In this document: one piece after another, positions 1,941 to 26,600 of the stretch | How positions within the stretch are numbered: position 1 is the first letter of the stretch | Layout of the letters: the number at the start of each line of letters is the position of its first letter | From: Phoronis australis | Taxonomy: Eukaryota > Animalia > Phoronida | Direction of reading: 5' to 3' | Assembly (NCBI GenBank): GCA_002633005.1 | Contig: NMRA01000020.1 | Span: 1,211,650-1,275,649, forward strand | Length of the DNA stretch: 64,000 nucleotides | The notes under the pieces: generated by a model | What the model was told of the DNA's origin: nothing | The model's database searches: none | What the model saw: only the letters and a program-made list of their open reading frames with translations | Translations under genes and position numbers: made by a program

Positions 1941-2253
1941 AATGCTGCTTATTTTTGTGAGTTTGTCTTGAAAATTTGTCTATTTGTCTGAATATACAAT
2001 TTAATTGCAATTATGAACATGATGGTATCATGAGGAGTGGTTTACGATAGGACTAGGAGTGTTCACTCTGCCTTCTTGCCATTCGCCACTGTGGTTATCA
2101 GTCAAAAACTAACGCCCCGAGAGGCTAATAAGCAACATTAATTAAGTGGTGGAGTCTGAACCATGTAAACACAAATCATATCTTAATAATGTTCCACATA
2201 CAATAAAATTACTTTTTGAACACTACTAGATTTGTGGAATATACTAATCTTAA

Positions 2254-3952
2254 AGGAGAATGCCACCCGATTTGATTAGTCTTTTTTGCCGTCTTAATCG
2301 GTCTATATCCACATCGCCTCGCATACGGTCGACCTTACCTTGCCAAGAGGTGTCGCGTTAGCATGTGAAGAAGGTGAGAAACGACGCCAGCGACGTCAGT
2401 GGTTCATATGCAAAGTGAATGCCGCTATGTTGCGGTGCATCTTGAGTCCCGCTTGTCCGAACTAAGCAGCTGCAAGGAAAGCGGGTTTATCGTTTTTTTT
2501 ACTTCCTCGAGAGTCCAAAATGCTTAGGAAGTGGCTCATGGTAGTAAAGAACGAAATGTACGCTGTAAGTAGCAAGTATGATGCCGTGAAACATCTCCGT
2601 GTCTGTGGCTTGCAGACTTCAGTGCCTGACGCCATGCTGGCTTACAAAATGACTCCATACGTCCCGTTGTCTGAGCTTGTTCACGGCGCCTCTCTAGTAT
2701 TTCTTCATCACTGTATTCCTATTCGAATTGATTGCCTGTAAAACTTAACGATCCACCTGCGAAGTCGGGACTGATGAGCTCTAGCTCGTCCTAAGTCGGG
2801 ATTGCGAGTTGCCGTGTTGGCGTTTATTAATGAGCGATCTATTCTCACCCTAACCAATATAAAACTGAAACAAAGTCTGTCTCATTAAATGCAATTTGTA
2901 ATGCCTTTGGAGTGTTCGTGAGTGCAAATGATTTGAGAAGCCAGCAACGAAGAAATCACCGCGTTACGGCTTTAGGTGCAACAAAACTATAATTGACGGG
3001 ACACCGAGGCCGTGTGAGCTCATGCTAATTCATTGTTTGGTGGCAGAAACTGTCGGAAACAACTCGATTTCCATCCCACTGTCAGGTGTTAGGGGAATCT
3101 TTATTTACATTTACATTACTCAAATAATGATTGTCAATGTACAACTTCTGAACTGACGGTGCTGTGGCCAAAGCGGAACCTGAATTCGCGGCCCCCGACG
3201 AGTAATTAGATTTACAGTTTCGTGGCTAATTCACCAACATAATCACGAGCACATTACTTTGGCTCACAACTATAGTATTTTCTTGACTCAGCTGGAGAAG
3301 CCCAGTGGTTTATGCCGTTATCTGACATAAACTGCCTCGTTGATCTGCTCGTGTGCTTTGGATCATTGTTTTGATAGAGACGATGTGTCGCTGGGAAAAC
3401 TGATCTTTGGAAAGGCAAAAATGTTTTCCTTAAAATGCTCTGATAAAAGAGAGAATCCATTTTGCCCTCAAAGATGNTGTGTTTAGAACTCAAAAAATCA
3501 CAAGTCTAAACAACACAGATCTAGGTTCTCCTGTCTGCATCTCACGGAAAATACTTCAAAATTATCTCGATCAGACCCCAAACTCCTGCTACGGACCTTA
3601 TTGGCCTGCCGAACTTTGTAGGCTACGGTGTGTCCAAATACCAATATATCCGTAAGAGAGAAACAAAACAACACGTTTTTTGTAAGAACTCGGTGTATTT
3701 TCAAGGGTTTTACATCGAAGTTTGATGATTTATTGGTGTTAAACGATGACTTCAAGCGATAAGCTGACACCAGTAACCCGTGTTGTGAACTGCTGAAAAG
3801 ACTACGTGTGAAACCGATGACGTCATTGGATAATTTCAACACCTCCGTCTGCCGTCAGGTGTCAGGTAACGCAACCGTACGTGTCGTTATGGAGTAGAAC
3901 TACTCGATCTAAATTGATACAAATTAGGTTGCTTTTTAGGTGGCATGCTCCT
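2254..3952. mobile_element. Non-autonomous TTAA-flanked DNA transposon (Kolobok-like), family B copy 1
   Basis: TTAA|AGGAGAATGCCACC ... GGTGGCATGCTCCT|TTAA terminal inverted repeats. A homologous copy lies at 55211-56407. Confidence 0.85.
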
Positions 3953-5466: not shown

Positions 5467-6075
5467 GACAGCTACGCTCACCAGCAAGCATGTCAGTAGC
5501 CATGCATGACCCAGCAAGGAGTGCACTTCTTAGGTCCCCTGCTGTGCATGCATCACAATGGAATTCAATGCACCAATTCAACAAGTTAGTGCAGTCCGTT
5601 GAGGTATTGGCAAAACGACTTGCAGTACTGGAAAGCAAAAAGGCCAACAAAAATAACGATTCATGATCCAAAGATATCGAAACTGAAGTTATCGGAAATC
5701 GAGAATGTGGTTATCTCTGAACGTTAGAAAGTGAGCTGCGACCATTGTCATCTGTGGCACCCTTTCTACCTAAACAAAGGGTGGTGGAAATTGTTAATGT
5801 TTCTTCGTCACCTGAGTCAGATGCGAAATCAGTGATGTTTTGAATTTTAACCGTCGGAGAAGCTAATAATAGGAATGTAAATGGAGTAAAATATTCCAAA
5901 TCTGGTACAAAAGGAAGACTTAACAAGGACAAATCAAATTTGTTTTGGACAGTGTGATGACACTGTCAGAGTATTCAAGATTCTTCAACACTCCAGATCA
6001 GAAGTTACCCTCCAAATTGGTAAAGGCAATCGACAGTGGGATCATAAAACTGTTTTATAAGTTGTCTGAAAGAGT
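5467..6075 (+). pseudogene. Degenerate exon encoding a coiled coil plus BEN-domain-like region
   Basis: Acceptor TTTTATTTTAG at 5466. Translation FNKLVQSVEVLAKRLAVLESKK...AKSVMF*ILTVGEANNRNVNG...KGRLNKDK/IKFVLDSV...KLVKAIDSGI resembles the BEN pattern (F..EE..RNV.G..K..L..K.I....AID). It has 3 stops and a frameshift. Possible upstream exon relics at ~826-945 and ~4533-4747. Confidence 0.5.
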
Positions 6076-7827
6076 GATTCTCCCACGCCCTATTTTATGA
6101 AAGGTGACTTAACACTCTACAAACATTCAGCCTCATGCTACACACCTTGACATGTGAGTGGCTTCTAGGTTGATTGACATTTGTCTGTATGTGTGCAAGA
6201 TGAAGAAAATCACTTTTTATTGTATAATATATGTACCTTTCATGATTTACATCTTGTGTTCTTTTCGACTTACTATCATGGCTAAATTTTGAAAATCCTA
6301 TTTCAAGAATAACTGATTTGATTCAATGGAAACTATTAGGTATCATAATTCATGCAGAATTCTCAAAAACAGTGTTCGAAATTAGTTTCAAAGCATAAAA
6401 CGAAAATGAGCAATGAGAGAAAAATCGAAAGCACTTCTGAGAATTCATCATTAACATTAATTCAACCAAAATTTAGTCATTGTATTGATACCAGTATTTT
6501 GCTATGAGCGTACCTTTCCTTTTTACTACTAAAATGCTTGGTCACGTGGTATGAATTTTAAAATCTAATTCTGCATAGCTATTTCTACTTTCAGCGAATA
6601 TATACTTTTAATGAGCTAAAATCTATATTCTATAGATATTTGGTAAATGCATAGGTTGGTCTATAAGATAAGGACACGTCCTATAATTCAAATAAGCCAG
6701 CAGTTTTTACTATGCTCGTAGTGTTTGACAGTTTTGAATAAACCATCAGTGTTATTATAGAGGGAGTTGAAGGCTGCATGAACCACATCTTATATATATT
6801 GAGCAGTAAGAGACAGATACATTTGATCATTCTGTTGCCACCAGAACATTCACAATCTCAACAAATGTTCAACTTAAATTTGAATATTTTTCAAAGAATT
6901 ATCCACTTCAACAATCATTTTCTCACCAGAAGATAATGCAGACTCAAATACAACACACAACCGATTTTGTATACTTGCACTAACTCCTATAGAAAAGTTA
7001 TGCTCAATTACAATGGCATCAATAAAACAGGCAATGTAATGTTAACAGTGCTGGTTATGTGACCTTACTCAGAAACAAGCTTAAACACAATTCGTTACAC
7101 AGCTTTAATGTTTAAACAATACAACATGTCTATGATATAACGTATCTGTGAATGCAATTGCAAAATTGATAAAACAGGTAAAATAGCCATTTGATATCAA
7201 TATTACTGTAATGCCAACATTTCAAGCACTTCCATTCCCAGGCTTTCCCTTCTGTATCAATTTGATTTCAGACATAAGTTTCTTATATGCTTATTTCTGT
7301 TAATAGCTAAACAATAAGGGATTTGTTTCATGACTGTGTGCTGTGACATTAAAAATATCTGACGAACTTACTGAACTGCAGCAGTTATCGCAAAAAGTGA
7401 ACAATATTTCTTCTCTTCGAAAATCGACTAAATTTTGAGGAAATACTTTCGGCTAATTTTTAAATAATTTAGTACTATCTTTCAGCTGCTTTACTCCTGG
7501 ATTTTGAGTGCAATTTCAATGAAGCCTGACGAATTTCGACGAAAATTTAAACCATTCACTTTTTTAAACTACTGTGTTTAGCAACATAAAAATGTTTCTT
7601 GATGTTACCCTCATGAAACGATTATGTATCTGTAACTGATATCGGAAAACAGTTTTCCTACACGAGATTTAGAAATGGCATTGCTGTGACTTATACCAAC
7701 GCATTTTCTCCAAATTACATCTTACTGTAATATACAAAATTTCCAGAAGGCAACACAGTAAAACAAAAATAAGCCAAATGTACAGAGATCACTATGGCCC
7801 GGGAATCCAGAAAATGTGATTTCAGTA

Positions 7828-8230
7828 CCCGGTTGCATGAAACAGCCCAAAATAGGGACTCAACTAAGTTCCCTACATTGCTTGCGTTTTTGTTTCATTT
7901 GTTTACTCACAGGCGGAAGATTTTTTCTATCATGTTATCTTTATTATAAACTCTCCTTTGACTAATTACATTTCAAATAATATTACTGAAATCTGAGCAC
8001 TTAATTCAGTTAAACTATTTAGGGACTTAGTCCTTAAATTGGGAGTGCTGCGTGAAAGAATTTCTACTTATTTTCAATAATGTTGAGAATTCAAAGTAGA
8101 GTTTACTTTTGTACCAAAGTCCAAAAATGAATTAGTAATGAGACTCATAACAGCATAAGAAATGACAATCAGCGTTTTCACAAGCCCACAAATACGCAGT
8201 AGATTTAGGGAACTTAGTTGAGCCCCTACT
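7828..8230. repeat. Inverted-repeat structure immediately 3' of the transposase stop (possible TE terminus)
   Basis: AGGGACTCAACTAAGTTCCCTA (~7853) is inverted as TAGGGAACTTAGTTGAGCCCCT (~8205). Internal palindrome TTAGGGACTTAGTCCTTAA (~8019). Begins TA|CCCGGTTGCATGAAAC. Confidence 0.5.
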
Positions 8231-8240
8231 TGACTCCGCT

Positions 8241-8690
8241 TTAGAAACCAGAAGAATTCCCTTTGTTGGCGATGACCTGTGGCAGAACCTTGTAGATATG
8301 GTTAATGTAACGGTTACACTTTTCAGGTGTAACCGTTGCCCAAAAATTCTTTATTCCACTCACCAACTCTGCCTTTGTAGTTGGCTGAGCATGCTTCCAA
8401 ATGTAGGCTTTCAGCTCATGCCATAAATTCTCTATGGGATTTAGGTCTGGCGACTCAGCTGGAGAAGCCCAGTGGTTTATGCCGTTATCTGACATAAACT
8501 GCCTCGTTGATCTGCTCGTGTGCTTTGGATCATTGTTTTGATAGAGACGATGTGTCGCTGGGAAAACTGATCTTTGGAAAGGCAAAAATGTTTTCCTTAA
8601 AATGCTCTGATAAAAGAGAGAATCCATTTTGCCCTCAAAGATGTGGATCCTAGTGGCACCTCTCCTGGAAATTCCAGCCCAAACATGCAA
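8241..8690 (-). CDS. Tc1-like transposase gene, exon 5 of 5 (DDE domain C-terminal half, stop)
   Basis: Acceptor CTTATTTCAG. LHVWAGIS...YQNNDPKH...SPDLNPIENLW. There are 34 residues between the second triad position (here N) and E. Ends in TAA. Confidence 0.92.
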   Translation of the reverse strand: MHVWAGISRRGATRIHIFEGKMDSLFYQSILRKTFLPFQRSVFPATHRLYQNNDPKHTSRSTRQFMSDNGINHWASPAESPDLNPIENLWHELKAYIWKHAQPTTKAELVSGIKNFWATVTPEKCNRYINHIYKVLPQVIANKGNSSGF

Positions 8691-9185
8691 CTGAAATAAG
8701 AAGTTGAGTGTGAAATTGCGAAATTAAACGAGAATGAAAAGAATTATTACATGGCAACTGATACTTCTGTCCTACAGGTGGCTAAAACAAAATATACATA
8801 TGAACTTCTTATAACAATAGACCAATAGCTGTAAAATGCACAGTTATGAACTGACACATACAAGGTAGTTATTCCACAACGCACTTAACCTGTTTTTACA
8901 GATCTTTGTTCATACTTATCTGACAGAAAGAGTTGAGAGGGGTAATCCGTCCACATATCAAACTTCAAGTCAACTTTTTTATTGTTCGCACACCCTTCAG
9001 AAATTCAACTGCATATTCCAACCTCTAAACCTATGATTGATACCAATATCAATCTTTGGAAATTTATGTCACTTCATTTAGAAATCATTGAAACTTGGCA
9101 TGGAAAGCTTTGACTCAAAAGTTCACAAAAGACACTGATTAATGTGGCATGGGGGTGCTGAAAACAAGAGCTAGAGATATCTCAC

Positions 9186-9362
9186 CTTCAATGGGTGCTT
9201 GAAAAGCCCCGTCTGTTGTTCAGGCTTTCCCTTTTCTTGAAAATATTTACTAGTTGTCCGTTCCATTTTAATGGATGATTCATCAGTGAAAATGACATCA
9301 TCGAACGTTTCCTTTGTCGCAATGCACCTCACGGCATAAACAACCCGAGGTGGTCTGTTCTT
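9186..9362 (-). CDS. Tc1-like transposase gene, exon 4 of 5 (first catalytic Asp)
   Basis: TTTTACAG|...|GTGAG, 177 nt, phase 0-0. KNRPPRVVYAVRCIATKETFDDVIFTDESSIKME...KHPLK contains the VIFTDES motif. Confidence 0.9.
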
Positions 9363-10149
9363 CTGTAAAAGAAATTAAGAAAAGTAATGTAAAAACTGTG
9401 CTCACAAAGCAACAAAACTAGAGGATGAATGTTGATAAAACACGACTGCTACAGAATAAAAAGCAGACGGAACAAACTATATGCAGTAAAGGAAAAGTGA
9501 CTTTAAATAAACCCACTCTTTCTGTCTCAGCGAGTTCCACGGGCACGTTATATGGAATTATAGTTGTGACCATTATTAAGAAAGCATTTAGTGGCGGTAG
9601 TCTGTTGCATGGACGCAGAATTGGAACGTTGATAAATATTGATTCGAAACTATGTATCTTTCATGAAAAAAGAGGAAGTAAAACGTCAATTGTGTGTCAT
9701 ATTGGGATTACACTGGTACAATTGTGCTGTAGCTTACTTTTAGCTGCGTTTACTTGGTTTTACACCCTCCATCTGTTCCATGGGTGCCAATTTGTTTGAA
9801 GGTGCATGCTGTGTCCACATATTGCTTATATGCAAATTTACAAAATACTACTAATTGCACAATCCTATCAAACTCTGTTTCGCTGAGAAATGTTGCTTGA
9901 ATTAATAATGGCAATGAGCGTTCATTGTAGCAAGAGAAATAAAGTCGTATCATGGTATGGACAAATTTGCTATACCAATTTCCTTTTGAAAATGGCCTTG
10001 CTTTGAGTTTGGTACAATGGCTTGTAGTTATAAATTTATTTTATAGATAGTTGTTAATTCGTCTTATCCTACAGATTTTTATCTATTAATCACATAGTAT
10101 ATTTTGTCAGTGAGAAGAATAGTGGGATCTAAAACTGTACAGAAGTGCT

Positions 10150-10365
10150 TAAAAAAGTGGGCAAGAAAAGGTCCGCTTCAAAGAAACATAAAGTCCGAGA
10201 AAGCGAGAGAAAAGTCCACTAAGGTAGGAATTCGGCGCATATATATATGCACAATTCATAGCCCTGAAAAACCCCGTATTCTGTCATTTTTTTTTCTTTA
10301 GTACAAGGTCCACATCCTCAAACATTCGAGCCCCCCTATGTTTTAGAGTGGGTGCGCGCATGCCG
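10150..10365 (+). repeat. Dispersed repeat family (diverged copies also at ~34000-34200, ~37460-37620 reversed, ~39020-39240)
   Basis: Shared blocks AAAGTCCACTAA, CATAGCYC, AGGTCCACAT..CAAAMATTCGAGSCCC and TGCGCGCATG. Confidence 0.6.
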
Positions 10366-10563
10366 TGTGTGTAGTATGCACGGGAAATGCAAGCAAAGAT
10401 TCGGTTTTGTAGAACAAAAATTCAATACGCAATAACCTCAAAACTTCAAGGAAGTGCAAAGAGAACTTTTCCAGTTTGATTCTTTTTCAATCTACAGTTT
10501 GTAAATTTAAATGCTGTGGACCATAAACAAGTAGGTCTCTTAGTATGAGATTAGTAGTTAAAT

Positions 10564-10630
10564 CGTGGTGGTGTAGTGGCAACGCACGTGCGCACTAATC
10601 GCTAGGTCGTGAGTTCGAGTCTTTGCTACT
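10564..10630 (+). mobile_element. tRNA-derived SINE head or tRNA pseudogene
   Basis: Pol III A box GGTGTAGTGG and B box GTTCGAGTC at tRNA-like spacing. No convincing acceptor stem. Confidence 0.5.
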
Positions 10631-12349
10631 TGCAGTTTTTCCTGTTTGACACGTTCTCCGTTTTTTTGCCTTTTTTCGTGAATAATACTTCAGGAATCAA
10701 GGAAAATGCTTGATTTTTAGAGGTAAAAACAGAAAAATTTCCCGGGCGGGAGAGGGGTTTGCCCCCTCCCGACCTCCCCCCCCATTCGGTGCTATGCGCA
10801 TCTACAATCGTGGTTCAGTTTACACAAATTCTTACAGCCGGACAAAATGTTGGGCCCCCCTTGTGATATCCTAGATCCGCCACTGTAATACAAAAAGGTC
10901 GGACACTCGATTTTTGTGTGAAGTGAAGCACTCATGGAATTACTAGATCCGAGTGTCATGCCTTGTGGTAGGCTTATTATTAAGAATGATCAGAAGTTGA
11001 GGATGCCTGTTATTTACAACAGGGGCNAATGAACAATTTATTGCCATTTGAATTGTGACAATATTTTGGGACAATTTGTAGAGCTGTCCGAAATTCATCA
11101 ATTTCCTTGAGACTTATTTCAGATAGATGAAACTCGTTTAGTGTACTTTTATATTTGGGGATCTGATGATAGATCGAATTTTTCCAATGTCGACTTGCAA
11201 CTAATTTCATTGAGGCATTGCCATTTCTTACAAGATTAGCTTCTACCTGTCAAAAAATCACCTCTCAATCAGTCCATTTTCACTAATACATAAACGTGTA
11301 AATCAGAAACCAATAATCAAATGCATGAGCAATGCGTTTACCTTAATTTAATGACTTAATTCCTTTTTGATCACCTGTTAGTGAGTTCAAACAACAGATC
11401 TTGTCAAAAAAGCAATGTATTACTGTCATTTGAATGGTGAGTAAATTTTTGGGAAGTGTCCAAATTTCATCAATGTCTTTGAGAGCTATTTTAGACAGGC
11501 AAAAAGCGTCAAAGTGCACTTCACTATTTGGAGATCGGATTATAGAGTTTTTCCATATTTAGGCTTCAACTTAATTCCCTTAATAGTAATCATTTCTTAA
11601 AAGATTAGCTTCTAGTTGCCAAAAATCATCTATTAACCTGTCGGTTTTCGTAGATACACAAACATGTCAATCAGAAACCAACGAATTTGTTGATAAAACG
11701 GAATGTTATAAGTATTTTACGCAGGCGTGCTCACAGATTTTTGACGGGTAACCGGGGGAAAATGGAAGATTGGGCATTCACAGTATTTTTGCTCATTTCC
11801 GAGGTACCTATAACGGTTCACGAGTTGAACTTGAGCTCAAAAAGCTGCATTATTTGTTTACTATTACGAGTATTTGAGTACACACGTAAGATATGTACAC
11901 GGTCACCCCAATGGTAGCAGCGACAGCAGTGTTTTTCACATGTGGGAAATGCTTACGAACAACTCACAGTAACCATTTTCAAAAGATATACTATTCTTGT
12001 GATACTAAGGGAAACAGTAACATTATTCTATAACTAACCATCGGAAATATTCCTTTTTTGTAATTCACAGATAGTGGTTTTCACGTTCTTCAAAATTCCA
12101 CCCTTTCGATGGTCAATTTCTTTTGTATTTTTTCACATTTTTGGTTGTTTGGGTAGAATGTCCTGATACTTCTGGGCTGTGCACGAATATTTAGTGTTTT
12201 TTGATGAATTTGGAATCTCAGCTTCCCTCGTGAACAGTTGGCAGTGTTGGATTTACATGTATAGAGGGACAAAGGGACTGTTCTCTGAACTGCTCCACCG
12301 AGAGGGGGTCCAGTCTGAAATGGGACACCTTAATTATGAAAAGCTAAAC

Positions 12350-12670
12350 ATAATTAAGCTTGGAAAAGAATGGCAGTTCATTCCACCGCCGTGTGGTAAC
12401 AAGACGGTGCAGGAAGTGACCTTCTTCAAAATGAAAGTCGGTCGCACAATTTGACAAAAAACTAAACGTAATCGAGTCCAACTTTAAGCCCTCTATCAGT
12501 GAGCGAACCCTTAAGAATTTGTCAATAAAACATAAAAAGGGTGGCCACTTGAATGTCATCAATGGCCACCTACAAGGGTGGGGCACCTCAATATGAAAAT
12601 ATCTATATTTTGAAAAATCAAGAAATGTGCAGGCAATTGATGATATCTGTCAGATCATCAATTTTTCTCA
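12350..12670 (+). repeat. Dispersed repeat, diverged copy at ~35858-36168
   Basis: Both start TTAAGCTTGGAAAA..TGGCAGTT.ATTCCA and end GCAATTGAT.....TCATCAATTTTT. Confidence 0.75.
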
Positions 12671-13655
12671 AGTGATATACAATTCGAGAAAAAAGCGACA
12701 GTTGTCTCCGTTATGGCTTCCCAGAGATGGGCCTGTGGAAAAATGTGGTTTTACTATTGCAAAATTTGACTTATTTATTTAAAAAGACAGCAAATCAATA
12801 CGCTCCGCAAAAAGCTTTGCTTTGCATTTTTTTCAATATGCATATGTGCACGTTTTCAAGTGCGTTTAGATGACCTGTGCTGCGAAAGCGGAGACCCTAA
12901 CAACAGTGTCCTGGGCCCGGTCTCCAATCTCCGAACTCAGACTCGAATCATGCTCAAACATAGTCTATGCTGGCAGCAGGCGTATTGTAATCCCTTGTCG
13001 GCGAGTCATAACAAGCGCTGAAAGCAGTTGCGGGAAAAGTCGTGTGAGAAGTTTGTGCTGCCCTTATTTCGGTATGTGTGCCTACGTTTTGTAGGGTTTC
13101 CAAAAGACGAGGAGGGGAGGGAAGTTAAAAAAAGTTCGCTTCCCTGTCAGGTACATTTCTCATCATAACTTAGTCATCTATAATTCCTCAATCCCCAAAT
13201 GGAATTCCAGATTTTATTTGCCGATTTCTAAGTAGACGTCTCGTCCCGTTCACTGCCACTGGTGAACTCTGAATGCCTGCACAAGTATTGTTTTTTAACT
13301 CACGTGCCAAATGTTACTCACTTGATACATCCCGGTAAAATTCAAAGATACAGTATCAAAGTTTGAAATCAGCGTAGGCCTACACAGCAATGGGTTTTAT
13401 GTCAAGACTTAATTAGCAACAGAGAGGTGATGTGATAAGCTGTTACATATTTCTTAAGACAATTTCGGGACTGGGTGAGGAACTAACTCAAGAAGCAAAG
13501 CTTAATAATTGCCAAATGTATCAAAGAAATTGCATAAGAATATTTATTGAAACTAAAAAATGAATAACAGTTACAGAACACTCAGAATTCCACGTTATAG
13601 ACATACTCTTGTAATTGTAGCGACAGCAGACGATAATGTAGGCCTAGTTCTTGGG

Positions 13656-14993
13656 GCGAAAGGTACCCGCTCACCCAAAACCTTTACGACAAACAGATGG
13701 CGCTTCTCATCAATCACGAGTCATTTTATCGCTCAAATAAGACTGTCTGCCAGAGAATCTTGACCAAGCACTTTGACCTACATTCTGCTGTTGTTGACTG
13801 TAGCAACAGGTCACGAGAGTTCATGAACCAGACAGTGTATGTCCTGATGAGTGGCGAATTTGTGTGGAAAAGAAATCTTTGTGTCCGACATTCCATGTTT
13901 ATAGTGCATGGTTCAGTTCGTTAAATAGATACTATATAAGTTGAAACCACTCTCTTTCGACTTAGTGTTGATAGAACATAAAATAGTACAGACGTTTCTA
14001 CTTGGTGAACCATCAGCTGTCGTGCCACGGCCAGTCCGGTCTGCTAGACTGACGGTTGTTGGCTAACGAGACACTGAATGAAAAAGAAAATATCGCAAGA
14101 GAATAAAACCTAGCATGTATATCACCATGTATAATTCAAGCATAATTTAAAAAATATAGTGGTTATATTTCAACCTAATTAAAATTAGGGTTGTTGAGTT
14201 GCCAAAATCTCGCCGGGCGGAAAAGTGGCCGGGCCCGGTTTAGTCAGCCACCTTAAAAGCTGGCCGGGTGTGGTGGCGACCAGGCTCATGCTTCCCCAAG
14301 GGTTGCAACATTGTAGGCTGCAAATTGTAAGATAAATTTCACCTCACACACTTAGGTTTAGTTTGGCACAAACTTCTGACAGAAAAATACCTGACAGAAT
14401 GTTTAATGTCAGCACTGCATGGGGGAATTATGTAACAGCTAAAAATGAATTATCAAAGCTCTTTATGCATTTTTGACCGAAAGGATTAATTTTGGCATGG
14501 TGAAATGATTTATTTTACGGAGTTTATCGGGTGAACGTTCAAGTACTGACCAATATAGGTTCGCTCAAAAACCAGACGATTGAACAGCAAAAAATCGGTT
14601 TATTTGACCAACTTATATGTCGCCTCACCATGGTCACGTTCATTGAATATATATTTTACCCCAGCGTTTAGGCCGAGCAACCACAACAGCGTAGATTTGA
14701 ACACTTTCATCTTAATTATATGTTATAAATAGTTATTACAAAAGGGGTTATAAACATGGAGTGTCGGACACAAAGATTTATTTTCCACACAAATTCGCTA
14801 CTCATGACATACACTGTCTGGTTCATGTACTCTCGTGACCTGTGGCTACAGTCAGCAGCAGCAGAATCTAGGTAAAGGTTTTTGGTCAAGATTCTCTGGC
14901 AGACAGTCTTATTTGAGCGATAAAATGACACGTGATTGAGGAGAAGCGCCATCTGTTTATCGTAAAGGTTTTGGGTGAGCGGATACCTTTTGC
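13656..14993. mobile_element. Non-autonomous Mutator-like (MULE) element with ~245-bp TIRs and 9-bp TSD
   Basis: TSD GTTCTTGGG at 13647-13655 and 14994-15002. TIRs begin GCGAAAGGTACCCGCTCACC and GCAAAAGGTATCCGCTCACC (13656-13903 vs 14748-14993). Confidence 0.85.
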
Positions 14994-15798
14994 GTTCTTG
15001 GGGTGGTCTATTCCAATAGGGAGCGATGAATCAGCGCGGCTTTGCGTGATTTTGCATTTCACATCATAAAGAGTTCCATAGCAACTCGAGTATGAGTGTC
15101 AAATTTGAGTACGTTTGTTGTCTACTCGAAATACGACATTAGATACGCTTTTTGAGTACGACTCCAGTGAGCACGATTTTGAGTATGAAATCTCGAGTGT
15201 GAGTATGAGTCTGAGTACGGAGATTGGAGATTGGAGACCGGGCACTGGCCAAAGTCCTCCAAAGGTAAACCATACACTGATACAGAGTTGTTAAATATTT
15301 TCTGAAATTTTGCCCTTATCCGCATTTAGCAGTGTCTTTCTTTTCTCGACTGTCCCCGTCCCACGCGTATGTCGGTTGCCACGGTTTAACCCTGACGTCT
15401 GAAAATTTTGGAGGGCCCGTGCCCCCCCCCCCCGGCTCTCCGCTTTCTACGGCCCTGTTTTACAGATATTCTTGAATTTAAGCTGCGTTTCTGTTACTTA
15501 CATTTGTGCATTTAAGACATATTTTACTGAAATTGTTAAAATATACCAATACCATGCTACATGCAGTTATTTCATTATTTATCAAATGTGCCTATGAAAT
15601 CGTGACTTTGGACCATTTCAGGAAAAACGGTTCAGTTTAAAGTGTAATGACAAAAGCTGCCACAAGGCGATGTTTTAAGTAGTAATGAACACTCACAACA
15701 ATGTTAAAGCCTTTAAACAATGAAAAACTTAATTTTGGGAATTATCTTTTCCCAAATTAGTGACATTTTAATGCATTATCTTTGCAAACTTTACATAC

Positions 15799-15991
15799 CT
15801 GTTTAACATTTTTGCAGTATTTCCGATTTACAAAGGACAAATTTAACTTCTGTCTTATTCTCCTGACTGAGGAGGCACTCGTCTTTACGCCAATTATATT
15901 TGCCAGTTCTTGGGATGACATCTTACGATTCCCCTCAGTCAGGCTGACAATTTCCCCCAGCTTAAGCGTAAGAGGTGATGGTCTACCTGGC
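15799..15991 (-). CDS. Tc1-like transposase gene, exon 3 of 5 (GRP linker and second HTH)
   Basis: TTTGTTTCAG|...|GTATGT, 193 nt, phase 2-0. (R)PGRPSPLTLKLGEIVSLTEGNRKMSSQELANIIGVKTSASSVRRIRQKLNL...KQ. Confidence 0.88.
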
Positions 15992-17617
15992 CTGAAACAA
16001 ACATATACACAGTAACAATGCAGCCATTATTCTTCACCTAGAGACCGACTCTGCTTGGCGTCTGCAAAATAAGATTCTCGGATTAACAGCTTGAAGTTGG
16101 AGTGAGGATAGACTTCAGCAAGTTCAACCAGTTAATTCGAAATTCTACACCAAGTACTCCAGGAAACAACATTCCCATCTTGTTTAAGTTTTGTCAAACT
16201 GTTTAAAGATGGGAAACAAGTGGCCACTTCATACGATTCTGTTCCTTAGCTTATTATACACAATTGATGCATCATCAAGTGAAGTTTTTGGAGATTTGAC
16301 AATACTCGCAAATTACTTTAGCCCCTCTGAACTAAAGTTTACAAAAATGGTGCTTTCTATACAAGGCCTTTAGTGAAGAAAGGATCGGTGTTAAATTCCA
16401 CGCCCTGAACAAAGACCAGAGCAATTTTGTGAAAAGGTTCACCTTAAGACAAAACATTTCTGATCTCATCTGGAAGCCCAGCTGCTCTTGTTTAAGGGTC
16501 ACTTGTCAATACAAAATTACTCAGGTCACCTACTCAGATTCTGAAAAATATGTTCAAATTGTTTATTCAAGTTTTTGGCCATTGTTAATTTGAATTAGAG
16601 CATCATGAATAATTTGGCCCAAAATATCGGTAGCTCATTTTTGGCTAAAGAAAAATATATATTTAAAGACACATTGAACCTCTTTATCAGAAGATAGTCC
16701 ATGAATTTCTAAAGGGGTTTCCATTAATCATCACTGGAGAGTAGTAAATTTTGCCAATTTTGTGAAATTGATTTTCAGCCATTTTGAGGTGCTCGTGGGG
16801 TCAGTTTGCAAGGTGCTGATGAGTTCCAATAATAATTATTGTGAGTTTGTTGTCTGACTAAGAAAATAAAAACAAACTTTTTGTTTATTTTTAAGCAACA
16901 GACGATGGAAAAGTGATCATAGTCGGAATTAGTACGTCAACTAAAATGATTCTAAAGGCCATTTGCCACAATAAGTAACTTAAATGTAACATGAAATTTT
17001 TCAGCCATACAGGCTGAACAAAGTATGAAAGTAGATATACACAATTGGTACCATGGGCACTAAGTACCATAAAAGCGTTTCTCCCGAAACTGGAATTTGG
17101 CAAACATGATAATTTAGTCAGTGTGACTGCGATTTTTAGTCGGTGTAAGGCATAATTTGTCGAAAAGATTTCAGCGTATGATGCTACTTTATGAGCAACA
17201 CCATCTCTAGTCAGTTAGAGACAGTGGTCATTGGCTAGCATCGAAGGTGCAGTCTACTGCACAACAGTAAAATTTCACCGACACCAGAAGTTTGAATACA
17301 ATACCGTTGATGAGAAAAGCAGTTTTTTTAACAACACCGCAATGAAAAAAAACAATGGCGTGAAAGCTAGGTCATGGTTCTGATTGATGCATAAATACTA
17401 TGGCGGGAATATTCAATTAATTGTAACTGCGTAATTATGGAACAGCCCTATTCTAGTTTCTTGTGCCAACCCACTTCTACTGGCAACTTAAAATATATAG
17501 GTACTTAGTCTTAGTGCCTAATGCACTGTGTACAATACTAGAAGTAGAACTAATACTTCTAATTGTGCAATAGTTTCCTGAAAATACCTTTGACACAATG
17601 TTGGAGAGAAAATATAC

Positions 17618-17688
17618 CTGCTCCTGTCTGTCAGTAGGCCAGTCTTCATATATCTTTGAGACCACTTGACAATGGTTTTTCTTGATAC
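17618..17688 (-). CDS. Tc1-like transposase gene, exon 2 of 5
   Basis: GTCTTTTAG|...|GTATAT, 71 nt, phase 0-2. VSRKTIVKWSQRYMKTGLLTDRS(R) matches the Tc1 first-HTH recognition helix and ..TG...D..R before GRP. Confidence 0.85.
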
Positions 17689-17827
17689 CTAAAAGACAGT
17701 GGAATGGGCTATTCCTCAGTCACGATGCTAGCAATCACACTGTAGCATTTCCTCAGCAAGGAAGTATCCATTTAAAAGTCATTTGCACAAAATAAAATCT
17801 GACTCTATGATTGGTCAGTTTTGAATT

Positions 17828-17853
<26 letters not shown>
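17828..17853. repeat. (TA)n microsatellite
   Basis: Direct read. Confidence 0.95.
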
Positions 17854-17859
<6 letters not shown>

Positions 17860-20689
17860 CGTGTGTGTAAATAAAATGACAATAGTGCATCAACTAGTTG
17901 ATCACATCCTTTGTCAACAGTTGATGCCCATTGTCTTATTTACACATGGGCAATTCCGTTTACATACATTACACAGGGGTACGTACACTACATTTCAATG
18001 ACATGTCAGATTTGTAACTAAATACTAAGAATCTACTGACAGTTAGTTGATTTACTAAATCAATTCAAAAAGAAAAAATATAAATAAAAAGCAAAGCATT
18101 CATGTGCATATCTGCCATACTTTGAAAATGGGCACAAATTAAGATATGGGAGTACGTAAATGCTAATATTTCACTCAAAACAACTGTATTTGCAATAAAT
18201 ACTCTTTTAACCTAGCATTTTTAAAGAAGGAAACTGTCTGTGACCAATGTTGCTCACTTACGGTAAAGTCGCGTGATTTTCGGGCGACCCGCCATTTTCG
18301 ACCAAGAATAAATATTTCCGAAATGAGTTTTTCATAGTCCACGAAATTCGTACAAGGTCCAAAACTGTTTATCAAAGATCCTCGAATTTCGGACATTGTC
18401 ATAAACGCCGAATTTTGTCCGCGACTTTCGGACAAGGAAAATTTTAGAAATTTGGGATCGACGCAACTCCCGTGTCACTAAAGCGTTCAACGGAACTCTA
18501 TAAGGCTTGAATCTGAGAATCGGTGTAACGGGCTTTGACTATAATTTTTACCTTGTCTTGACGATGTCACGACCGTTACTCGATTGTCTTGCGTTTAGCT
18601 TGTGTTTGGCGCTTTAGCTATGAAAGGAATCACAGAGTCCCGTATGACGAAAATTTCTGATGAAAATACAAATGGGAAATACACCGAAGGCTGCAACTTT
18701 TCGTTGTAGCGTAACATGTGCTCTGGTTTAATTAGACCGTAGTGTTCGACCTCCGACTGTGACTTTGAACTTGCACGCCTGACATCAACTTGCGTTTTTA
18801 CGAAACTTTTATATTTTTAAAACGTCCTGCCCTTTGCAAATGCCCTTGTCAGTGGCTAAAATCTCCCGACGACGTGTCAGGATTGTATCCTTGACGCGAT
18901 GAGAAATATTTTTTGTTTAGGCCCCCATACACAATAGGCCACAGCTAAGTCTGTCCGTGGGATATCGAACGTTCAAAGTAGTTTAGATAGTGAACAGCAG
19001 TAGCCGAATGAGACGGAGCCAAAGTAAAGCTGGATACAAAGCAAACATAATTAAGTCGCACCCCGCGTGAGCCCAACCGAGTGATATTTTAATTTTATGG
19101 CATTTGTAAACATGGGGGTACGTACACTACAAAAGAGGGTACGTACACTACATCACTGTTTCTGCATCACATGGTAACATAATGATGTGTGGCCATTTAT
19201 TTTTCTTTGGTGATAATACGCGTCATGTTGTTATTTAAAAGGCAATAATTTCATTTGCAATGACCATTTGTATTACTGTGTTTCACATGGGGGTACATAC
19301 ATTACCTTTTGTTAGTCTTTTTGGCCCATTTTTAACATAGCAGAACTGATTCAATATCCAAACTTTTGGTTTGTTTAGATATTGAATAATTTGCTGTGTT
19401 GCCTAGGCTGACATATTTTGCAGTTCTTTTTGTTACATAGTGTGAACTTTGGTTTTTAACCTTCTTTATAGTAGGTGAGGGTTAGAAACACAGAATTTAC
19501 AAATTTCGTAACGACTGCCTGTTTTATGATGAACCCTACCATTTCTCAATGATTAAGCACAACTTCATCTAATTGACTCTGAAAGTGACTCATGTTATTC
19601 CCAGTCATATCTAAACAATTGCTTGCTCGATAAAATAAATTTCTTTTCTACTCTTGACAGTTGAAAATTGTTATTTTTAAAATGGCCACTCGTAATGCTA
19701 AAAATGCATGAAATTGATAGGCAAAAATATGCATAAATTTCTTAAACATTGTCCGATTTTGATGATTCTTTTTTTAATTTTCACAACTAAATAACTCCTT
19801 GCATAACGAGATTCAGTTGGAATTTGGTAAGTGACCAAAAAATTATTTTAGACCGTAACACAGTCAAGTCTCGAATATGGACTTTGATTGTGATTTAGCC
19901 AACACCGATATTACAAAGACAGCTTTAAAATTAGGTAGGCCTAATTAAAGTTGCTACAGATCTAAACTTGATTCGTCTTTTGCAATCTCAAAAGTATTTG
20001 CAGAAAAGTTATAGTTCACAATGTCATCTAGTTATTTTTAGTGGAATTCAATTTATTAAAATCAGATAGCTGGACCATATTGATTATAAAACGTAAATGA
20101 AACAAAATGTTAATTAACTGATCATATTGTTTTTTCTGATGCTGCAAATGTCTGCATGTAAACTGTATGTCAGTATGGTGAAACCATAGACTTTACGAGT
20201 TTCTATGGTGACACTTGCCACTTGACCGTGACTTTCCTCTCCTTACTGCCGTCTGCTGGTTTATGTTTATGGGCGTTAGTCTGGCTTGAATAACGGTCAT
20301 GTTAGTGAATGCAACTGGTTCTCTAAATTTGGGTTCATTTTATCCTACTAGTGCCCTTACTCCTCGGTAATTAGCGGAGTTGCAACCGAATCGATTTAAC
20401 GATTGCGCATGTCCGGAAATTAGGGTGCGCAAAGGCTATTGGGATTCATAAGGGTAAATTGAATGGCCAATTGGTTTGCACGACATGTGATTTGTGTGCA
20501 TTAAACTACGTTGCTGTATGCAATTCTGCTCGCCCTAATAAGCGCCCATGCCCCAACAAGTGCCCCAACGCGTTTTCAGACTTTGCTAAAGTAAGCGCTG
20601 AGCCCATGAACTACATGCAAAAAATGCCCTTACCTACAGTTCTAACGTCTCCAATTTATCAATTGAAAGATCCGACAGTCCTGGATTTG

Positions 20690-20940
20690 TAGACCACGAG
20701 CCCCACCGTTATGTCCGTATACACTTCAAACTTACGCCGCGATTCAAAAAAGAACGCATCAGGTTTGCTGCTCTTGCGAGGGATGTGCCCCACTACGCGG
20801 GTGTGGACTTTGAAAAGAGATGCAGCGTACTTGTCAGCGGCTTTGCATTGTTTCTTTCCGGTACAGATCTTCTCCGGCCTCAACAGGAATCCAAACTTCT
20901 TTGTACACGTGAAAACCGTGAATCGAAGACTAATAAAAAA
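20690..20940 (-). pseudogene. Degenerate HIRAN-like domain ORF (TE-associated)
   Basis: SSIHGFHVYKEVWIPVEAGEDL, then after a frameshift DKYAASLF...VVGHIPRK.S...FF. This matches the GYHVYK.W.P..GE.L...D.YAV...VGH.PR pattern. Confidence 0.6.
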
Positions 20941-22014
20941 ATCGACCAGTGTTAGCACGCGGCCAAGAATCGCGCGCTGCATAATGTACCGGCTGTCATC
21001 GAAGACATTTAGTCGGGAACTATCTATTCATGAAACGGGTAACATAGCATCGACAAATAAATATTGGCACTAATTTCCGAAAGTTTCTAATACCGTAAAA
21101 AACTTTTGCATTATTTTTAAGAGAAATTATTTAACTAATCGTAATTGGTGTTTTTAAGGTCAAAATGACCCACTTCGCACCCTTTGCCCCCCAAATCTTC
21201 CGGAAAATAGCTGTTCCACTACGGTCACGCATCCACTCACCCGGCGACTCAATGAGTGACATATCGGTCTTACCGAAAAAAATTCTCGAACGTTTTTTAG
21301 CAGATTAGGCCAGCAAGTGCTAAGCTAAATATTAAAACACGCTCTGCTTGACTGCTTGACTTAATTTCTTTGGATACAATGCACACCTAGATCATTACAT
21401 TACTCTGGCAAACGAACTTTGATGACAAGCACACGCACGCTTACTGTCACATACACGCATACAAACTTCAAAACAATCGTCACGTGACAACAACATGTGT
21501 GTTCCTCCAGAGATTTTTATCGTGTTGCGGTCTACAATCTAGCGCAGATTTGGACTTAATCTGCAGTTAATACAGACTCCACAAGAACTTAAACATCTTA
21601 GAGACGCTATTTGGAAAACTTGAGGAGGATTTCAGGTAATTTGTTGAGTCGAAGCTGTATTCTTATTCAAAAATTCAAGCCCTATCGACGATTGCGAGAC
21701 CGGCAGCTACGCATTTGTCGTCAAGATTTCGCCCTGGGACTTCAACACAATTTTATGAAAAATGATCGTAATTTAACAACGAATTTTGATAGCAATGCAC
21801 CACAATTTTGTAGAAAGTAAATAATGATATTCTGCACGCTTTATCCTAGCGTGTAATACATGTAGTGTGCGTACGTTAATTGAGTTGACCCAGAACAGGT
21901 GATTGTGCAGAGGCATTATCCTCAAAATTGCTCATGTTGGCTTGGTTCTGGTCAAGCGAAAACATTTCTTTTTTCACTACCAACCGCCGTAGAGTATTTT
22001 GTTACTGTTTCTTT

Positions 22015-22260
22015 GAAGGGAGATATTGTTGGGCAGTTTCCAAGATACGTTTTCTTGCCGCCCTCAAAATGAGCGCTGCATACTTTATGCTACCAAGTCG
22101 GAAAGAATTCACGAAGTCGGCCTTTGCTACCAGCTCTACCAATGTCTCTGTCCCATGTTTAACGCAGTTCTTGATCCTTGGGAAACAGGTAGTAACTAAT
22201 TTTTTTATCTCGCTAACTGGTATTATAGCATGCCAGGCACACAACACGTATAACTTCCCT
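22015..22260 (-). pseudogene. Degenerate THAP zinc-finger ORF (DNA-transposon relic)
   Basis: GSYTCCVPG/CYNTS*RDKKISYYLFPKDQELR*TW...FPTW*HKVCSAHFEGGKKTYLGNCPTISP. Shows the C2CH signature, FP, W and PTI box, with 3 stops and a frameshift. Confidence 0.75.
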
Positions 22261-23505
22261 GTGGCCGGTTCGCCCCCACGCTTGCCGACGTACTTGTTTA
22301 CCGGCTTAACCACAATGCAACATTCTGACCCATTTCCAATATGGCGGCGTTGCAACTCCGCTAATAGCACACCCATCCAAGAATTAATACTATCACAAGC
22401 AGACAGTAGTTGTAAACAAGTTAGCCAAGCCAGCAAGACAGCTAGATAGTTGATAAATGCTGAAGCAGACGACTTGGGAATGAAAAGGTACGACACAATA
22501 TTTTTTTGGCATTTGATTGGCTGTTCTGGTCATTTTGCACTGACATATTAGTTGAGGCATGATTTTTAAGTTTTGTTAGAAACTATATGGTTACTTTTTG
22601 TTGTTGAATTATTTGTGAAAATAATCAGCAACTCATGGAAAACTGTGCAAAATTTATTCAGAATACAGTACAGTTCCACTCCAAAGCTTTTAGGAATCAT
22701 TTTCCCACCTACACCTGTATTTCGGGAAAACGTCACTGATAAAATGCATGCAAAATATTATTGTCTTATTAGGTGCGGAGAAATAGGGTGTCCAAGGGTG
22801 TTTACTCCCTCACTGTACATTTTTACTCAGTAATTAACTCACAGTCAATGTTTAATGTAGAATTGTGGTTACACCCACCCAGAAAAGAGTATGAATCCCC
22901 GTCTGCTAGGAGGGCACACCAGTAGAATCGGGTCTGCATGGTTGTTTTAATCCAACGTCGGTAGGCGCATTGACTATACATTACAGGCCTACACAACGGC
23001 CTATATAGTTACAAATAGGACCAGCTACAGATTGTTCTTTCAAGAAAGCGTTTACAAGCGGTACTGTTTCATTATATCGAGTCCCTGGTTTTCGGCTTTC
23101 AAAAATGGTTGTTCAAAAACAGAGAAATCTGTCTCGCCTGAAATTCTTTTTTTTACGTTTTGCATTTTTGCATTTCCCGCTTTACTACTGCAGAAAAGGA
23201 GCACCACCTCATCCAACAATCGGATGAATGCAAAACCTCTTAATTGAACATGCCCGCGGTGTGAAAAGCATTTGTCGATGGACTTTGGTCCACAATGAGT
23301 ATCAGACATCGATTTGATGAATTAGTGCATTGTAATCTTCTTTTGTTACTTTAATGCTGAGAATATTAGAATTTCGGGTTTAGCACTGAAAATATAATTT
23401 CTCCCCGGCGGAAACCTCAGATACCATATTTGAAGTCCGATCTTGTGAATTCCTTCAGTTTTGGCCGTTTTCACGGAAAACCAGACTCTCTAATAAAATA
23501 CGTAC

Positions 23506-23625
23506 CTTCACATCATTCTCTTTCATGAGCCGTTGTTGAATCTGTGATGCACTGAGTCCCTCGCTGTGCAAAGTAGCAATTTTTCGCCGCAAAACAATGC
23601 TCAGTCTCAGGACACGATGTACCAT
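23506..23625 (-). CDS. Tc1-like transposase gene, exon 1 of 5 (start, first HTH)
   Basis: ATG in good context (AAGATGG). MVHRVLRLSIVLRRKIATLHSEGLSASQIQQRLMKENDVK. Donor AAG|GTACGT, phase 0, joins VSRKTIVKW. Confidence 0.82.
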
Positions 23626-26600
23626 CTTCCTAGTGGTGTTGAAAGCGTTCAAACCAGCGATTACGATTAAAAGTGAAGCAATGAAGTATGTTGGGTTGGA
23701 ACTGACTCCTCACCATGTGTTCTAGGTACCACAAACAACTGTCACTGAAACCTTCTATCAATGAACTTGGGAAAATATTTATCCAATCAAAACGCACAGT
23801 GACAAAACTAGTTGACCTAAGAAAAGCTGGCAACAATGGTTGTTGGAATGTCTTTGTATATGTTCAGTTTTAAAGTTATCTATTATTAAATGGAGCCATA
23901 AATCTGCAGCCATCTATTCATTTCTTCATGGATTAGTTCTTACTTCATTACACTCGTTCCTGTTTCGTTTAGTTGACTTGATAGCTCCTCTATTATGTTA
24001 GCTGTCTACAGGAGTTAGTGAGAGTGATAACCTATTGTATTCTCATACTTGTAGCAGCTTAAATTCTTGATCCTAGTCACCAGCCTCTGTTGCTAAGTCT
24101 TGTCTTGATTCACAAACAACACAGCCAAAGCTTCTCACTCACTGATTAGTTTTCTATTTGGCGAACATTCATCGAATAAGTTCACTTGCAAGGAATGCAA
24201 TATCTTTACACTATTCAAGGCTTGGGATTTCATCTTTTTTCGTCATTCAGTTAAGTTTCACAACATCGCACCAGCCTATTTCTTAGTAGAACGATGCATC
24301 ACCTGGGAAATTTTCCTCTTTTTGTCATTGGTGATTGCAAGCCCTGGTAATTATCACGCCAGAAGCTTTTAAAACACAAATATGTTTTTTCTCTCTGAAG
24401 CACCTCGGGTTTTTTCATTCATAAGAAAACCCACAAAACTTAATAATACTGAATGGAGTCTGTACTGAAATGAATTTTGAAAATGAACCTAGCACTGGGC
24501 TGTCTTTCAGTAGATACTTAGCGATATTAAAAAGTGCCAATGCTTTCTGAGAATAACAGCCTGTGCAGCTCATTGAGCGAAAATACTACCCGGAAAACTG
24601 CCTTTCTCCTCCGTTACCTGTGCCGTATAGGTCAGCTGAATGAGCAGTATGCAGTACACCGGTATAGCACCTAACCCACAACGAAGCAATGACTTGGGGA
24701 AAAAGCCAGATGCAACTTGTCCCTTGTCCAATGCATGCCAACGTGCCTGTCAAGGCCTATTCAATTTTCGGACATTCTTGAGATACGACAGAGAATGCCA
24801 TGAAACAACGAAATAATCATAAACAGTGAAAATAATTTGATATATAATTAACTTGTCATTGTTTCAATACTCGCAATGCCTTCGAACAAAGTGCTCAATT
24901 CTATTTACAAACTTTTTTTAAAGCAAACAGGATCAGTGATTCAAGCCAGTGTTGTTCAACAGGGCGAGTCACTTTCATTTGCACTTCCCATTTTGTTTTT
25001 TTCGGCCGCCTTGACTGTCTTGAAAATCAGAGCAAAGTGCGTAGCCGACGGCGTCATTTGATAGGTTTCGGGACTGCCAGTTTCCAATCTTCGGAGTTTC
25101 CAGTAAAACGCCTCACCGATTTTAATTGTTATTGATTATTTTGTCTTTCCATGACATTCTGTCACATTTCATTCAGAAAAATCTGTTAAAGGTCATATGT
25201 GATTAGGAATTTCTAATTTTTGAACTTGACGGGGAACAGCCGGGAAGCCAAGTTTGTAAAATGATTCGTGTAGACAAATCGTTTCAGTTTTGGGATTCCT
25301 ACCAAAAAGTTCCTTGTTAGTCTATACATAAATTTGCACCCTGATTGTTGTGTCGGCCCAAAATGAATTCTAATTACATGAGTATGTTGTTGTTAAGCCC
25401 GTAGTGCAGTTTCCGTAATAGAGACAAGATATACAAAGAAGTTTATAAATTGTTATTTAGTAGGTAACTGCAGGGTGAGACACCTTTTTCAAATTTACGT
25501 TTTTTGGAAAATGAACAAGAGCAGACAATTCTGAGAATCACTGATCTTAATTAAGCGTGCAAACTACTGTAGACGCACACAAAATGATATCATTCGTCCT
25601 CAGGCCAATCACTTCCTCCACAGAACGGCCAGGCTCGTACATATGTATGTTAGTACACAATTACATTTACGTAATGCTTAATTACTATAATGGCAGATGA
25701 AGGAAGATAATTATAGTTAAGTTTAAACGTCTTTTAAATCTCTTCGTATTGACTTTGGCAACTGTGACCGCAATTGCTGTTTAGATATATCACGGACACG
25801 CACATGTGAACGCCACTCTCAAACTGCATTTCCACTGACCAATTCTACGTGCACTTTAATTATAACAAGTCTATGAAATCCTCGGTTATAACATTATTCG
25901 CCACATCTCAATGGTACTGTTATTATCGCCAGCACGGATCTATCGGTAACTAACGAACGAAGCATTTTTTTCCGAGCTAAGGCAAGGCTTCTCATCTAAT
26001 TAAAGCAGGTTTGTTTTGTGTTTTGACCAACGTACGTTAAATTATTAGTATATTCCGTAACTGGCTATGTTCTACCTAACTGCTAGACCCAACACAAAAC
26101 ACGATCGTTCAGTATAGCCGCTAAGGAAAGCAAGACGGAGACATTCTTTCAGACCACATGGACAGTGACTAGGCCTGTATTGAACGTGTTGGCTTAGCTC
26201 CTTTGTGCGAAGACTGCCTTAGGGCTCAGTGCTTAACCACCAATTGTACCTCGTCATTGTGCGTAAGTGAAAAATCCCAACGCGGCACCGTATTGATGGC
26301 ACTTTCACTGAACAGCGAAATCGGACAAGGAGTTGTTGTGCAACCCGGGGTACAACTTTAATATGGTGTCAAAAGGTGCAATGAACACAAAACAGTAAGT
26401 TATAAACGAGGACATAATTTATCAATGGCCCCATGGACTACTGCAAGTTGTCACGTACTGCATTGTAGAACTGTGGGGATACTCCAGTTTTTATAAGATC
26501 CTGGGTCACTTTCATTCAGTGGCGCCAAAACGTGATTAATTTGTCGTTCGTTGACACGTTAGATAACCATCACCTCGACACCACTGGATCGAATGAAATC

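Follow-up and report, generated by a model that had tools for sequence, protein, structure and literature searches.

Gene model and predicted protein

The window under study is a 64,000-nucleotide (nt) stretch of Phoronis australis (contig NMRA01000020.1), and its positions 8241 to 23625 carry, on the minus strand, a five-exon gene for a protein related to Tc1 transposases. The original prediction, which was made from the letters alone, had proposed that GT-AG introns divide an open reading frame (ORF) of 336 amino acids (aa), and both re-splicing and ungapped alignment to relatives confirmed this model with its coordinates and phases. The joined exons comprise 1011 nt, which encode 336 aa plus the stop codon, and there is no internal stop. 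All four introns begin with GT and end with AG, the eight splice sites are intact and each of the four acceptors is preceded by 13-16 pyrimidines within 20 bases. The introns (5817, 1626, 6436 and 495 nt; phases 0, 2, 0 and 0) account for 14.4 kb of the 15.4 kb locus. When the spliced protein was aligned to intronless relatives, the alignment was ungapped at each of the four junctions and, thus, the gene model is more than a chance arrangement. The gene is real and probably functional, and its parts are as follows:

Exon 1, 23625-23506 (120 nt), minus strand: ATG start, aa 1-40, first helix-turn-helix (HTH); weak match to Pfam HTH_38 (E 0.0012, under the curated cutoff)
Intron 1, 17689..23505 (5817 nt), minus strand: high-copy repeats throughout
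Exon 2, 17688-17618 (71 nt), minus strand: aa 41-64, recognition helix of the first HTH (as placed by the alignment)
Intron 2, 15992..17617 (1626 nt), minus strand: low-copy sequence
Exon 3, 15991-15799 (193 nt), minus strand: aa 64-128, GRP motif and second HTH; weak match to Pfam HTH_Tnp_Tc3_2 (E 0.018, under the cutoff)
Intron 3, 9363..15798 (6436 nt), minus strand: high-copy repeats throughout
Exon 4, 9362-9186 (177 nt), minus strand: aa 129-187, linker and first catalytic Asp (D155, in FTDES); strongly changed when compared with sister transposases
Intron 4, 8691..9185 (495 nt), minus strand: two likely haplotypes
Exon 5, 8690-8241 (450 nt), minus strand: aa 188-336, followed by the stop codon; contains the RNase H-like core, in which N239 (codon 8537-8535) and E274 lie

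A paired-like double HTH with a GRPR-like linker can be seen from the GRP motif at aa 66-68 and from the alignment to relatives; the Pfam HTH matches of single exons are weak and below the cutoff. Exon 3 has two private in-frame gaps, one after aa 80 (1 aa) and one after aa 97 (3-4 aa), and no frameshift. Exon 5 matches Pfam DDE_3 (E 2.5e-12) and the catalytic domain of Sleeping Beauty (PDB 5cr4; E 7e-21), in which D244 lies opposite N239. Structure modeling of this exon gave a pLDDT of 92.5 and a TM score of 0.91 to 5cr4, and its RNase H-like fold is predicted to be intact. Structure prediction and database searches were carried out with exon 5 or with single exons, that is, with parts of the spliced protein. 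The searches with exon 5 yielded 439 longer proteins and 442 of near length, with 120 listed from each group, as well as 12,784 representatives (150 listed), and all counts of relatives given below are among the matches listed.

The catalytic triad is D155-N239-E274. The last two positions are separated by 34 residues, a spacing shared by 119 of 120 full-length relatives, and with its DDE_3 domain the protein is a Tc1 DD34E transposase by descent. The change from Asp to Asn at the second catalytic position had also been predicted, and here we found that Asp is kept at this site in 120/120 full-length and 119/120 shorter relatives. Asn239 means that the D-D-E triad of an active Tc1 transposon is not intact in this protein, and its codon is one transition away from an Asp codon. 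Among the 150 distant representatives, position 239 is Asp in 129 and Asn in 6, but these six do not group with our protein in the tree and represent separate losses. In DDE enzymes the second Asp binds metal, and Asn at this position usually stops cutting. Since Asn does not bind the catalytic metal in the manner of Asp, the protein would not cut DNA and catalysis appears to be lost. A literature search, which covered titles and the beginnings of abstracts and left most subscription papers outside, found neither a direct test of Asn at the second Asp of a Tc1 enzyme nor a paper on this lineage or on a Tc1 gene with such a change.

Copy number, haplotypes and transcription

Active Tc1 transposons carry paired terminal inverted repeats (TIRs) with a TA duplication. 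Such a pair was not found when positions 23626-27000 were compared with 4000-8240; the best blastn hit had an E value of 0.15 and the best local inverted score equalled that of shuffled sequences. One TIR element adjoins the gene:

7850..8231, strand not assigned: high-copy miniature TIR element, which begins 10 nt past the stop codon; the two TIRs match one another and not the 5' flank

On the other side, a repeated stretch (about 23670-23810, contig depth about 1800-2200) lies 50-180 nt upstream of the ATG. This repeat could be an old 5' end of the element or a later insertion that supplies a promoter.

In the DNA run X1, positions 8400-8609 of exon 5 were represented by a single contig at an identity of at least 82%. 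Its depth of 64.6 was within the range of unique bins (40-70), and read depth is only a rough guide to copy number. The conclusion of a single locus rests more on the fact that no further similar contig was seen at 8400-8609 than on depth. Multiple dispersed near-identical copies were not seen in this run, which gave one contig and decayed pieces. Within the limits of one DNA run, the gene appears to be a single copy without TIRs, as is characteristic of domesticated transposases. A related fragment elsewhere in the genome was recovered as a contig of 141 nt, which carries 19 changes and is frameshifted by an insertion of 1 nt. A 39-nt piece located elsewhere in the genome resembles the border of exon 4 and intron 4 (9178-9216, across the exon 4 donor) with 4 changes. 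Reads of this piece occur in each of the three RNA runs, most of them in the opposite orientation, and at its loose end the likeness to exon 4 continues, as judged by eye, with two 1-nt gaps. The border piece is likely part of a decayed copy, and taken together the two pieces indicate at least one decayed copy elsewhere, which probably shared intron 4. The window itself holds a further copy of part of exon 5:

3284..3476, minus strand: 192-nt identical copy of exon 5 (193 nt when compared with the allele in the reads), including the Asn codon; it adjoins a single N and lies inside an unrelated TIR element (about 2249-3957)

A sister of this TIR element at 55206-56411 lacks the exon 5 piece. 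We considered the copy as a real paralog, which is doubtful because the X1 contig for 8260-8648 runs continuously through it; it is likely an assembly artefact or a captured piece of the gene. The same TIR element holds, outside the gene, a weak THAP match (2466-2741, plus strand, E 0.018).

Evidence for selection comes from a comparison of intron 4 with exons 4-5. For intron 4, X1 gave two contigs with depths of 37.9 and 41.5. One of them was identical to the window and the other differed by 37 letters plus 11 gap letters over 466 nt. The depths of these contigs sum to about one diploid locus and, therefore, we read them as alleles. Exon 5 (8260-8648) was represented by one contig with 5 differing letters (depth 64.6) and exon 4 (9175-9302) by one contig with 0 differences (depth 69.2). 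A contig pair at 8619-8768 carried 11 differences that could not be divided between exon and intron, and bounds were used for this reason. We obtained 7-16 differences per 548 exon bases versus 42-46 per 495 intron bases (Fisher p 1e-9 to 1e-4). Thus, the likely haplotypes are about 9% apart in intron 4, plus insertions and deletions (indels), and about 1-3% apart in exons 4-5, which differ 3 to 7 times less than the intron. Contigs drop close variants, and the near-full depth of the exons limits the number that may be hidden.

By this contrast, purifying selection is indicated for exons 4-5 in one sample. Purifying selection on a host-recruited protein had been proposed for the locus, and this proposal is partly supported by the haplotype contrast, the single-locus depth, the lack of a TIR pair, exon-limited RNA in one run and the frameshifted fragment. 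It had been based on clean exons in a locus riddled with transposable elements. Exons and splice sites are indeed intact, but insertions that spare 1 kb of exon amid several kb of older intron say little when taken alone (rough estimate about 0.2). In neutral simulations with indels, in which the indel rates were assumed, 7-34 of 3000 runs retained an intact frame and splice sites at a divergence of 4.5%, and 0-2 of 3000 did so at 6.7%.

Four exon-5 variants were listed. Two are silent, A232V affects a variable column and W285R restores the commonest residue of the family (R in 73/120 relatives). The Trp285 of the window allele is absent from the five commonest states among the relatives at this position. 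RNA run X7, which comes from another sample, has three exon-5 letters in common with the X1 contig and unlike the window. No difference was listed for X7 at 8537 in the Asn codon (depth about 6.5); nearby differences supported by 4/4 and 8/8 reads were listed, so that a majority Asp would likely have appeared. Asn239 is present on two different exon-5 alleles. If these alleles go with the two intron haplotypes, a coupling that recombination could undo, the exons were constrained after the catalytic change, and selection for transposition cannot explain such constraint.

For transcription, we used three raw RNA runs (X5, X6, X7), of which 18-19% each were read, and a threshold of three reads for a splice joint. 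X7 gave about 14 exon-limited reads, about 2 of them in exon 4, and all had the first mate on the plus strand. In most stranded libraries this orientation corresponds to minus-strand RNA, and the reads are likely in the sense direction of the gene. Depth in X7 was 1-8 on exon 5 and zero in the bins 8694-9155. On exon 4 it reached 2 at most, and the reads there end at about the exon boundary, as spliced reads would. An RNA check of the four junctions had been suggested for this gene; it showed exon-limited reads, but no joint at the gene reached the three-read threshold in the part of X5-X7 that was read. Mapping of reads to 19.9 kb returned no gene junction among the 15 listed of 200 joints, and this mapping was swamped by intron repeats.

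Relatives, introns and known systems

In the trees, which comprised unnamed matches within set length ranges only, the protein groups with P0002, P0122, P0123 and P0434 (support 0.97-0.98). Its branch is 0.72-0.76 long versus 0.26-0.33 for three sisters. When we counted sites that are common to two sisters and changed here, we found 33/49 for aa 1-120, 23/41 for aa 121-187 and 25/103 for exon 5. In a comparison with three sisters, 22/40 sites of the linker had changed versus 30/106 (p 0.004), and each of the sisters was without such an excess. Because the sisters had been identified by searches with exon 5, this comparison of regional rates is biased. A relative-rate count versus P0002 (44 vs 30 sites, p 0.13) was not significant. 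As judged by these alignments, the DNA-binding and linker parts changed much faster than the catalytic fold.

Several long open relatives (P0340, P0298, P0342/P0433, P0346) lack both catalytic Asp residues, and P0340 is the predicted Saccoglossus kowalevskii protein XP_006819059.1. These proteins do not group with that of the window and may represent separate domestications.

Tc1 elements had been described as typically intronless or with short introns, and for this family the premise turned out to be wrong. In 39/120 shorter matches (P0124-P0239), a non-transposase leader precedes the motif R-P/A-K-H-P about 7 codons upstream of intron 4, and in 3/120 shorter matches, with a fourth identified by eye, a leader precedes the same V-H-V-W site as intron 4. 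The leaders are enriched in F, L, Y, C and I (58% vs 9%), as a translated pyrimidine tract would be. They look like translated intron ends, read from protein sequence, and point to a widespread intron-bearing DD34E Tc1 lineage. With introns looking common in this lineage, they are no sign of domestication by themselves, which is perhaps of more interest to transposon specialists.

Sleeping Beauty and other Tc1 DD34E transposases share with our protein the two HTH modules, the motifs GRP, FTDES, NDPKH and SPDLNPIE, the 34-residue spacing and the fold of exon 5. In contrast to them, the second Asp is Asn here, four introns total 14.4 kb, no TIRs were found and there is apparently one intact locus. 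In Sleeping Beauty D244 is catalytic and even the mutant E279D is inactive (PMC4820933).

TLEWI are Tc1-like elements with introns of pteriomorph bivalves, which kept moving after intron gain (10.1101/656579). They are described as 2.2-11.5 kb long, with a DD36E triad, mostly the motif YQDNDSKH and no GRPR-like motif, and their authors propose relaxation toward pseudogenes as the fate of most TLEWI genes (10.1101/656579). Similar to the present locus, TLEWI are of low copy number, have GT-AG introns (3-6 exons), usually lack TIRs, are sometimes transcribed and have been proposed to be host-co-opted. Thus, our gene resembles them in its spliceosomal introns, its low copy number and the lack of TIRs. 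However, it is 15.4 kb long and encodes a GRP motif, NDPKH and a 34-residue spacing, with Asn as the second catalytic residue; DD36E and YQDNDSKH without GRPR were not seen. On spacing (DD34) and motifs (NDPKH, GRP) we rejected TLEWI membership.

The Drosophila genes CG14478, CG4570, cag and LOC26532114 are derived from Tc1/mariner and are single host genes without TIRs (PMC13548663). LOC26532114 is lineage-restricted and near full-length, with mild selection and modest expression (PMC13548663). It retains the HTH and loses the DDE domain and CG14478 retains the DDE fold, whereas both parts stay in the present protein, in which the core is best conserved with one catalytic residue changed. For the Drosophila genes, unlike this one, orthologs and dN/dS are known. 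SETMAR (Metnase) of anthropoid primates is a fusion of a SET domain with a mariner domain and binds relic TIRs (PMC8994322), and it has been reported to cleave DNA despite Asn at the third catalytic position (PMC4036204). Like our gene it is a host-kept Tc1/mariner transposase domain with Asn in the triad, but here the domain is of the Tc1 type, Asn occupies the second instead of the third position and no fusion partner was seen.

Interpretation and surroundings of the gene

We consider it rather likely that the locus is a low-copy, immobile-looking Tc1-derived gene, which the host has retained under purifying selection as a likely non-cutting, DNA-binding pseudo-transposase. In this scenario, an element of an intron-rich lineage would have lost its ends and its introns would have grown to 14.4 kb by nested insertions. 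Asn239 would have arisen before the two exon-5 alleles separated. Constraint on the exons would have persisted from then on, at a stage where selection for transposition had become impossible. The product would be a nuclear protein that uses its two HTH modules for DNA binding and the retained RNase H-like core for pairing, without cutting. If this holds, the protein may be similar in action to SETMAR (without the fused domain), to the TLEWI genes and to the Tc1-derived genes of Drosophila.

As to its role, we would tentatively name a regulator or chromatin factor with a changed or loosened DNA target. Since the DNA-binding and linker parts changed much more than the core, such a role is favored over repression or nicking. 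A repressor that acts on its own transposon family, which now seems to be absent, has a precedent in dominant-negative self-regulation (PMC6719617); we regard this role as unlikely because the DNA run showed no closely related active family and the DNA-binding part has diverged strongly. Residual nicking is more improbable still. It is also conceivable, though rather unlikely, that rewritten DNA-binding and linker surfaces, on a fold kept minus one metal ligand, made the protein a new host DNA-binding factor, and that it stems from an intron-rich DD34E lineage, distinct from TLEWI, which repeatedly yielded intact, catalytically dead genes in other animals (e.g., P0340 of Saccoglossus kowalevskii, P0298, P0342, P0346).

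Several observations weigh against retention by the host as a non-cutting protein. The loss of catalysis is a deduction. The contrast between haplotypes is limited to exons 4-5 in a single DNA sample, assembled into contigs from which close variants drop out. Neutral divergence of 4.5% without indels leaves the ORF intact in 201/3000 simulations, and the locus was chosen for being intact. A further 44 rows of differences exist beyond those listed, so that a minority Asp allele is possible. The protein deviates from its relatives at 21/102 well-conserved columns, and only 3/120 relatives deviate as much. Its second HTH has lost 3-4 residues. Such changes would be expected as well under weak selection or in early decay. 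RNA is thin, with no reads inside exon 5 in X5 or X6 and no sense-direction depth on exons 1-2 in X7. Finally, exon 5 was searched in three ways and no ortholog of more than 63% identity was found among the matches listed. A neighboring MFS transporter of the proton-coupled folate transporter type (45018-46181, plus strand, an open frame of 387 codons) puts this last point into perspective. It had only two matches at E<=1e-30, which were 28% and 31% identical; the host lineage thus looks unsampled and the absence of an ortholog says little.

Part of these data would also suit a gene that was selected until recently, either as the master copy of an active element or as a short-lived host gene, and that is now relaxing to a pseudogene. 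The long branch (0.72-0.76 vs 0.26-0.33 in three sisters), the 22/40 changed linker sites that the sisters conserve, the unusual Trp of the window allele, RNA in one of three runs and the decayed related fragment all fit such a course. However, exons 4-5 differ 3 to 7 times less than intron 4, which indicates constraint into the history of the present population. Moreover, neither a stop nor a frameshift has arisen despite the long branch, and the relative-rate count versus one sister (44 vs 30, p 0.13) was not significant. We consider this alternative somewhat unlikely.

If the locus were simply a dead member of an intron-bearing Tc1 family, intact by chance and with Asn239 as its single inactivating mutation, this would agree with an Asn codon one transition from Asp and with the lack of an ortholog among the matches listed. 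Introns look common in the family, also at the site of intron 4, and TLEWI elements still moved after intron gain (10.1101/656579). Against such a copy stand the haplotype contrast, the nested insertions with 8% TIR divergence, the low neutral survival with indels and the lack of TIRs. In addition, the DNA run revealed no group of closely similar copies. We regard this reading as quite improbable. A transposase that is still mobile or catalytic, with cutting supported by Asn239 or the nearby Asp241, is very improbable indeed: D155, E274, NDPKH, SPDLNPIE and the fold are retained and Metnase reportedly cleaves with Asn at the third position (PMC4036204), but Asp is kept in 120/120 full-length and 119/120 shorter relatives, in Sleeping Beauty D244 is catalytic and not even E279D is active (PMC4820933), and the locus measures 15.4 kb, is without TIRs and looks single.

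If retention by the host is true, a lineage-restricted Tc1 transposase was kept after likely catalytic loss, with the selection visible within one species. The gene would then permit a direct test of whether such proteins are retained as DNA-binding regulators, transposon repressors or weak nucleases. Host-kept, non-cutting transposases have been described before in bivalves, flies and primates, and the surprise is moderate.

The introns had been described as holding decayed insertions, namely a MULE with diverged TIRs, THAP and HIRAN relics and a SINE. A nested TIR element and high-copy repeats in introns 1 and 3 were recovered, but the THAP, HIRAN and SINE labels were not confirmed. The element in intron 3 is the following:

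13656..14993, strand not assigned: TIR element with 248-nt TIRs (92% identical) and a target duplication of 9-10 nt; it lies within a larger TIR element (about 12892-15257)

Its empty-site joint (13646-14994) was present in three RNA runs and one DNA run, and we take the element to be MULE-like. As to THAP and HIRAN, a Pfam search of 89 intron reading frames of at least 48 aa returned 0 matches to either domain at E<=0.01. A search of 3000-27000 against Rfam also had 0 matches, which leaves the SINE label unconfirmed. A HIRAN-like motif at 20659-21027 (minus strand) was recognized by eye only and is likewise unconfirmed. Across 6632-24887, low-copy non-coding stretches gave contigs of 350-420 nt at about half depth in X1, which suggests very high heterozygosity. 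Further away, a frame at 31646-32176 (minus strand), which has no Pfam match, is presumably a gag-like retrotransposon frame, and we take another at 157-534 (plus strand) to be a GIY-YIG-like frame of a Penelope-type element; both were identified by eye.

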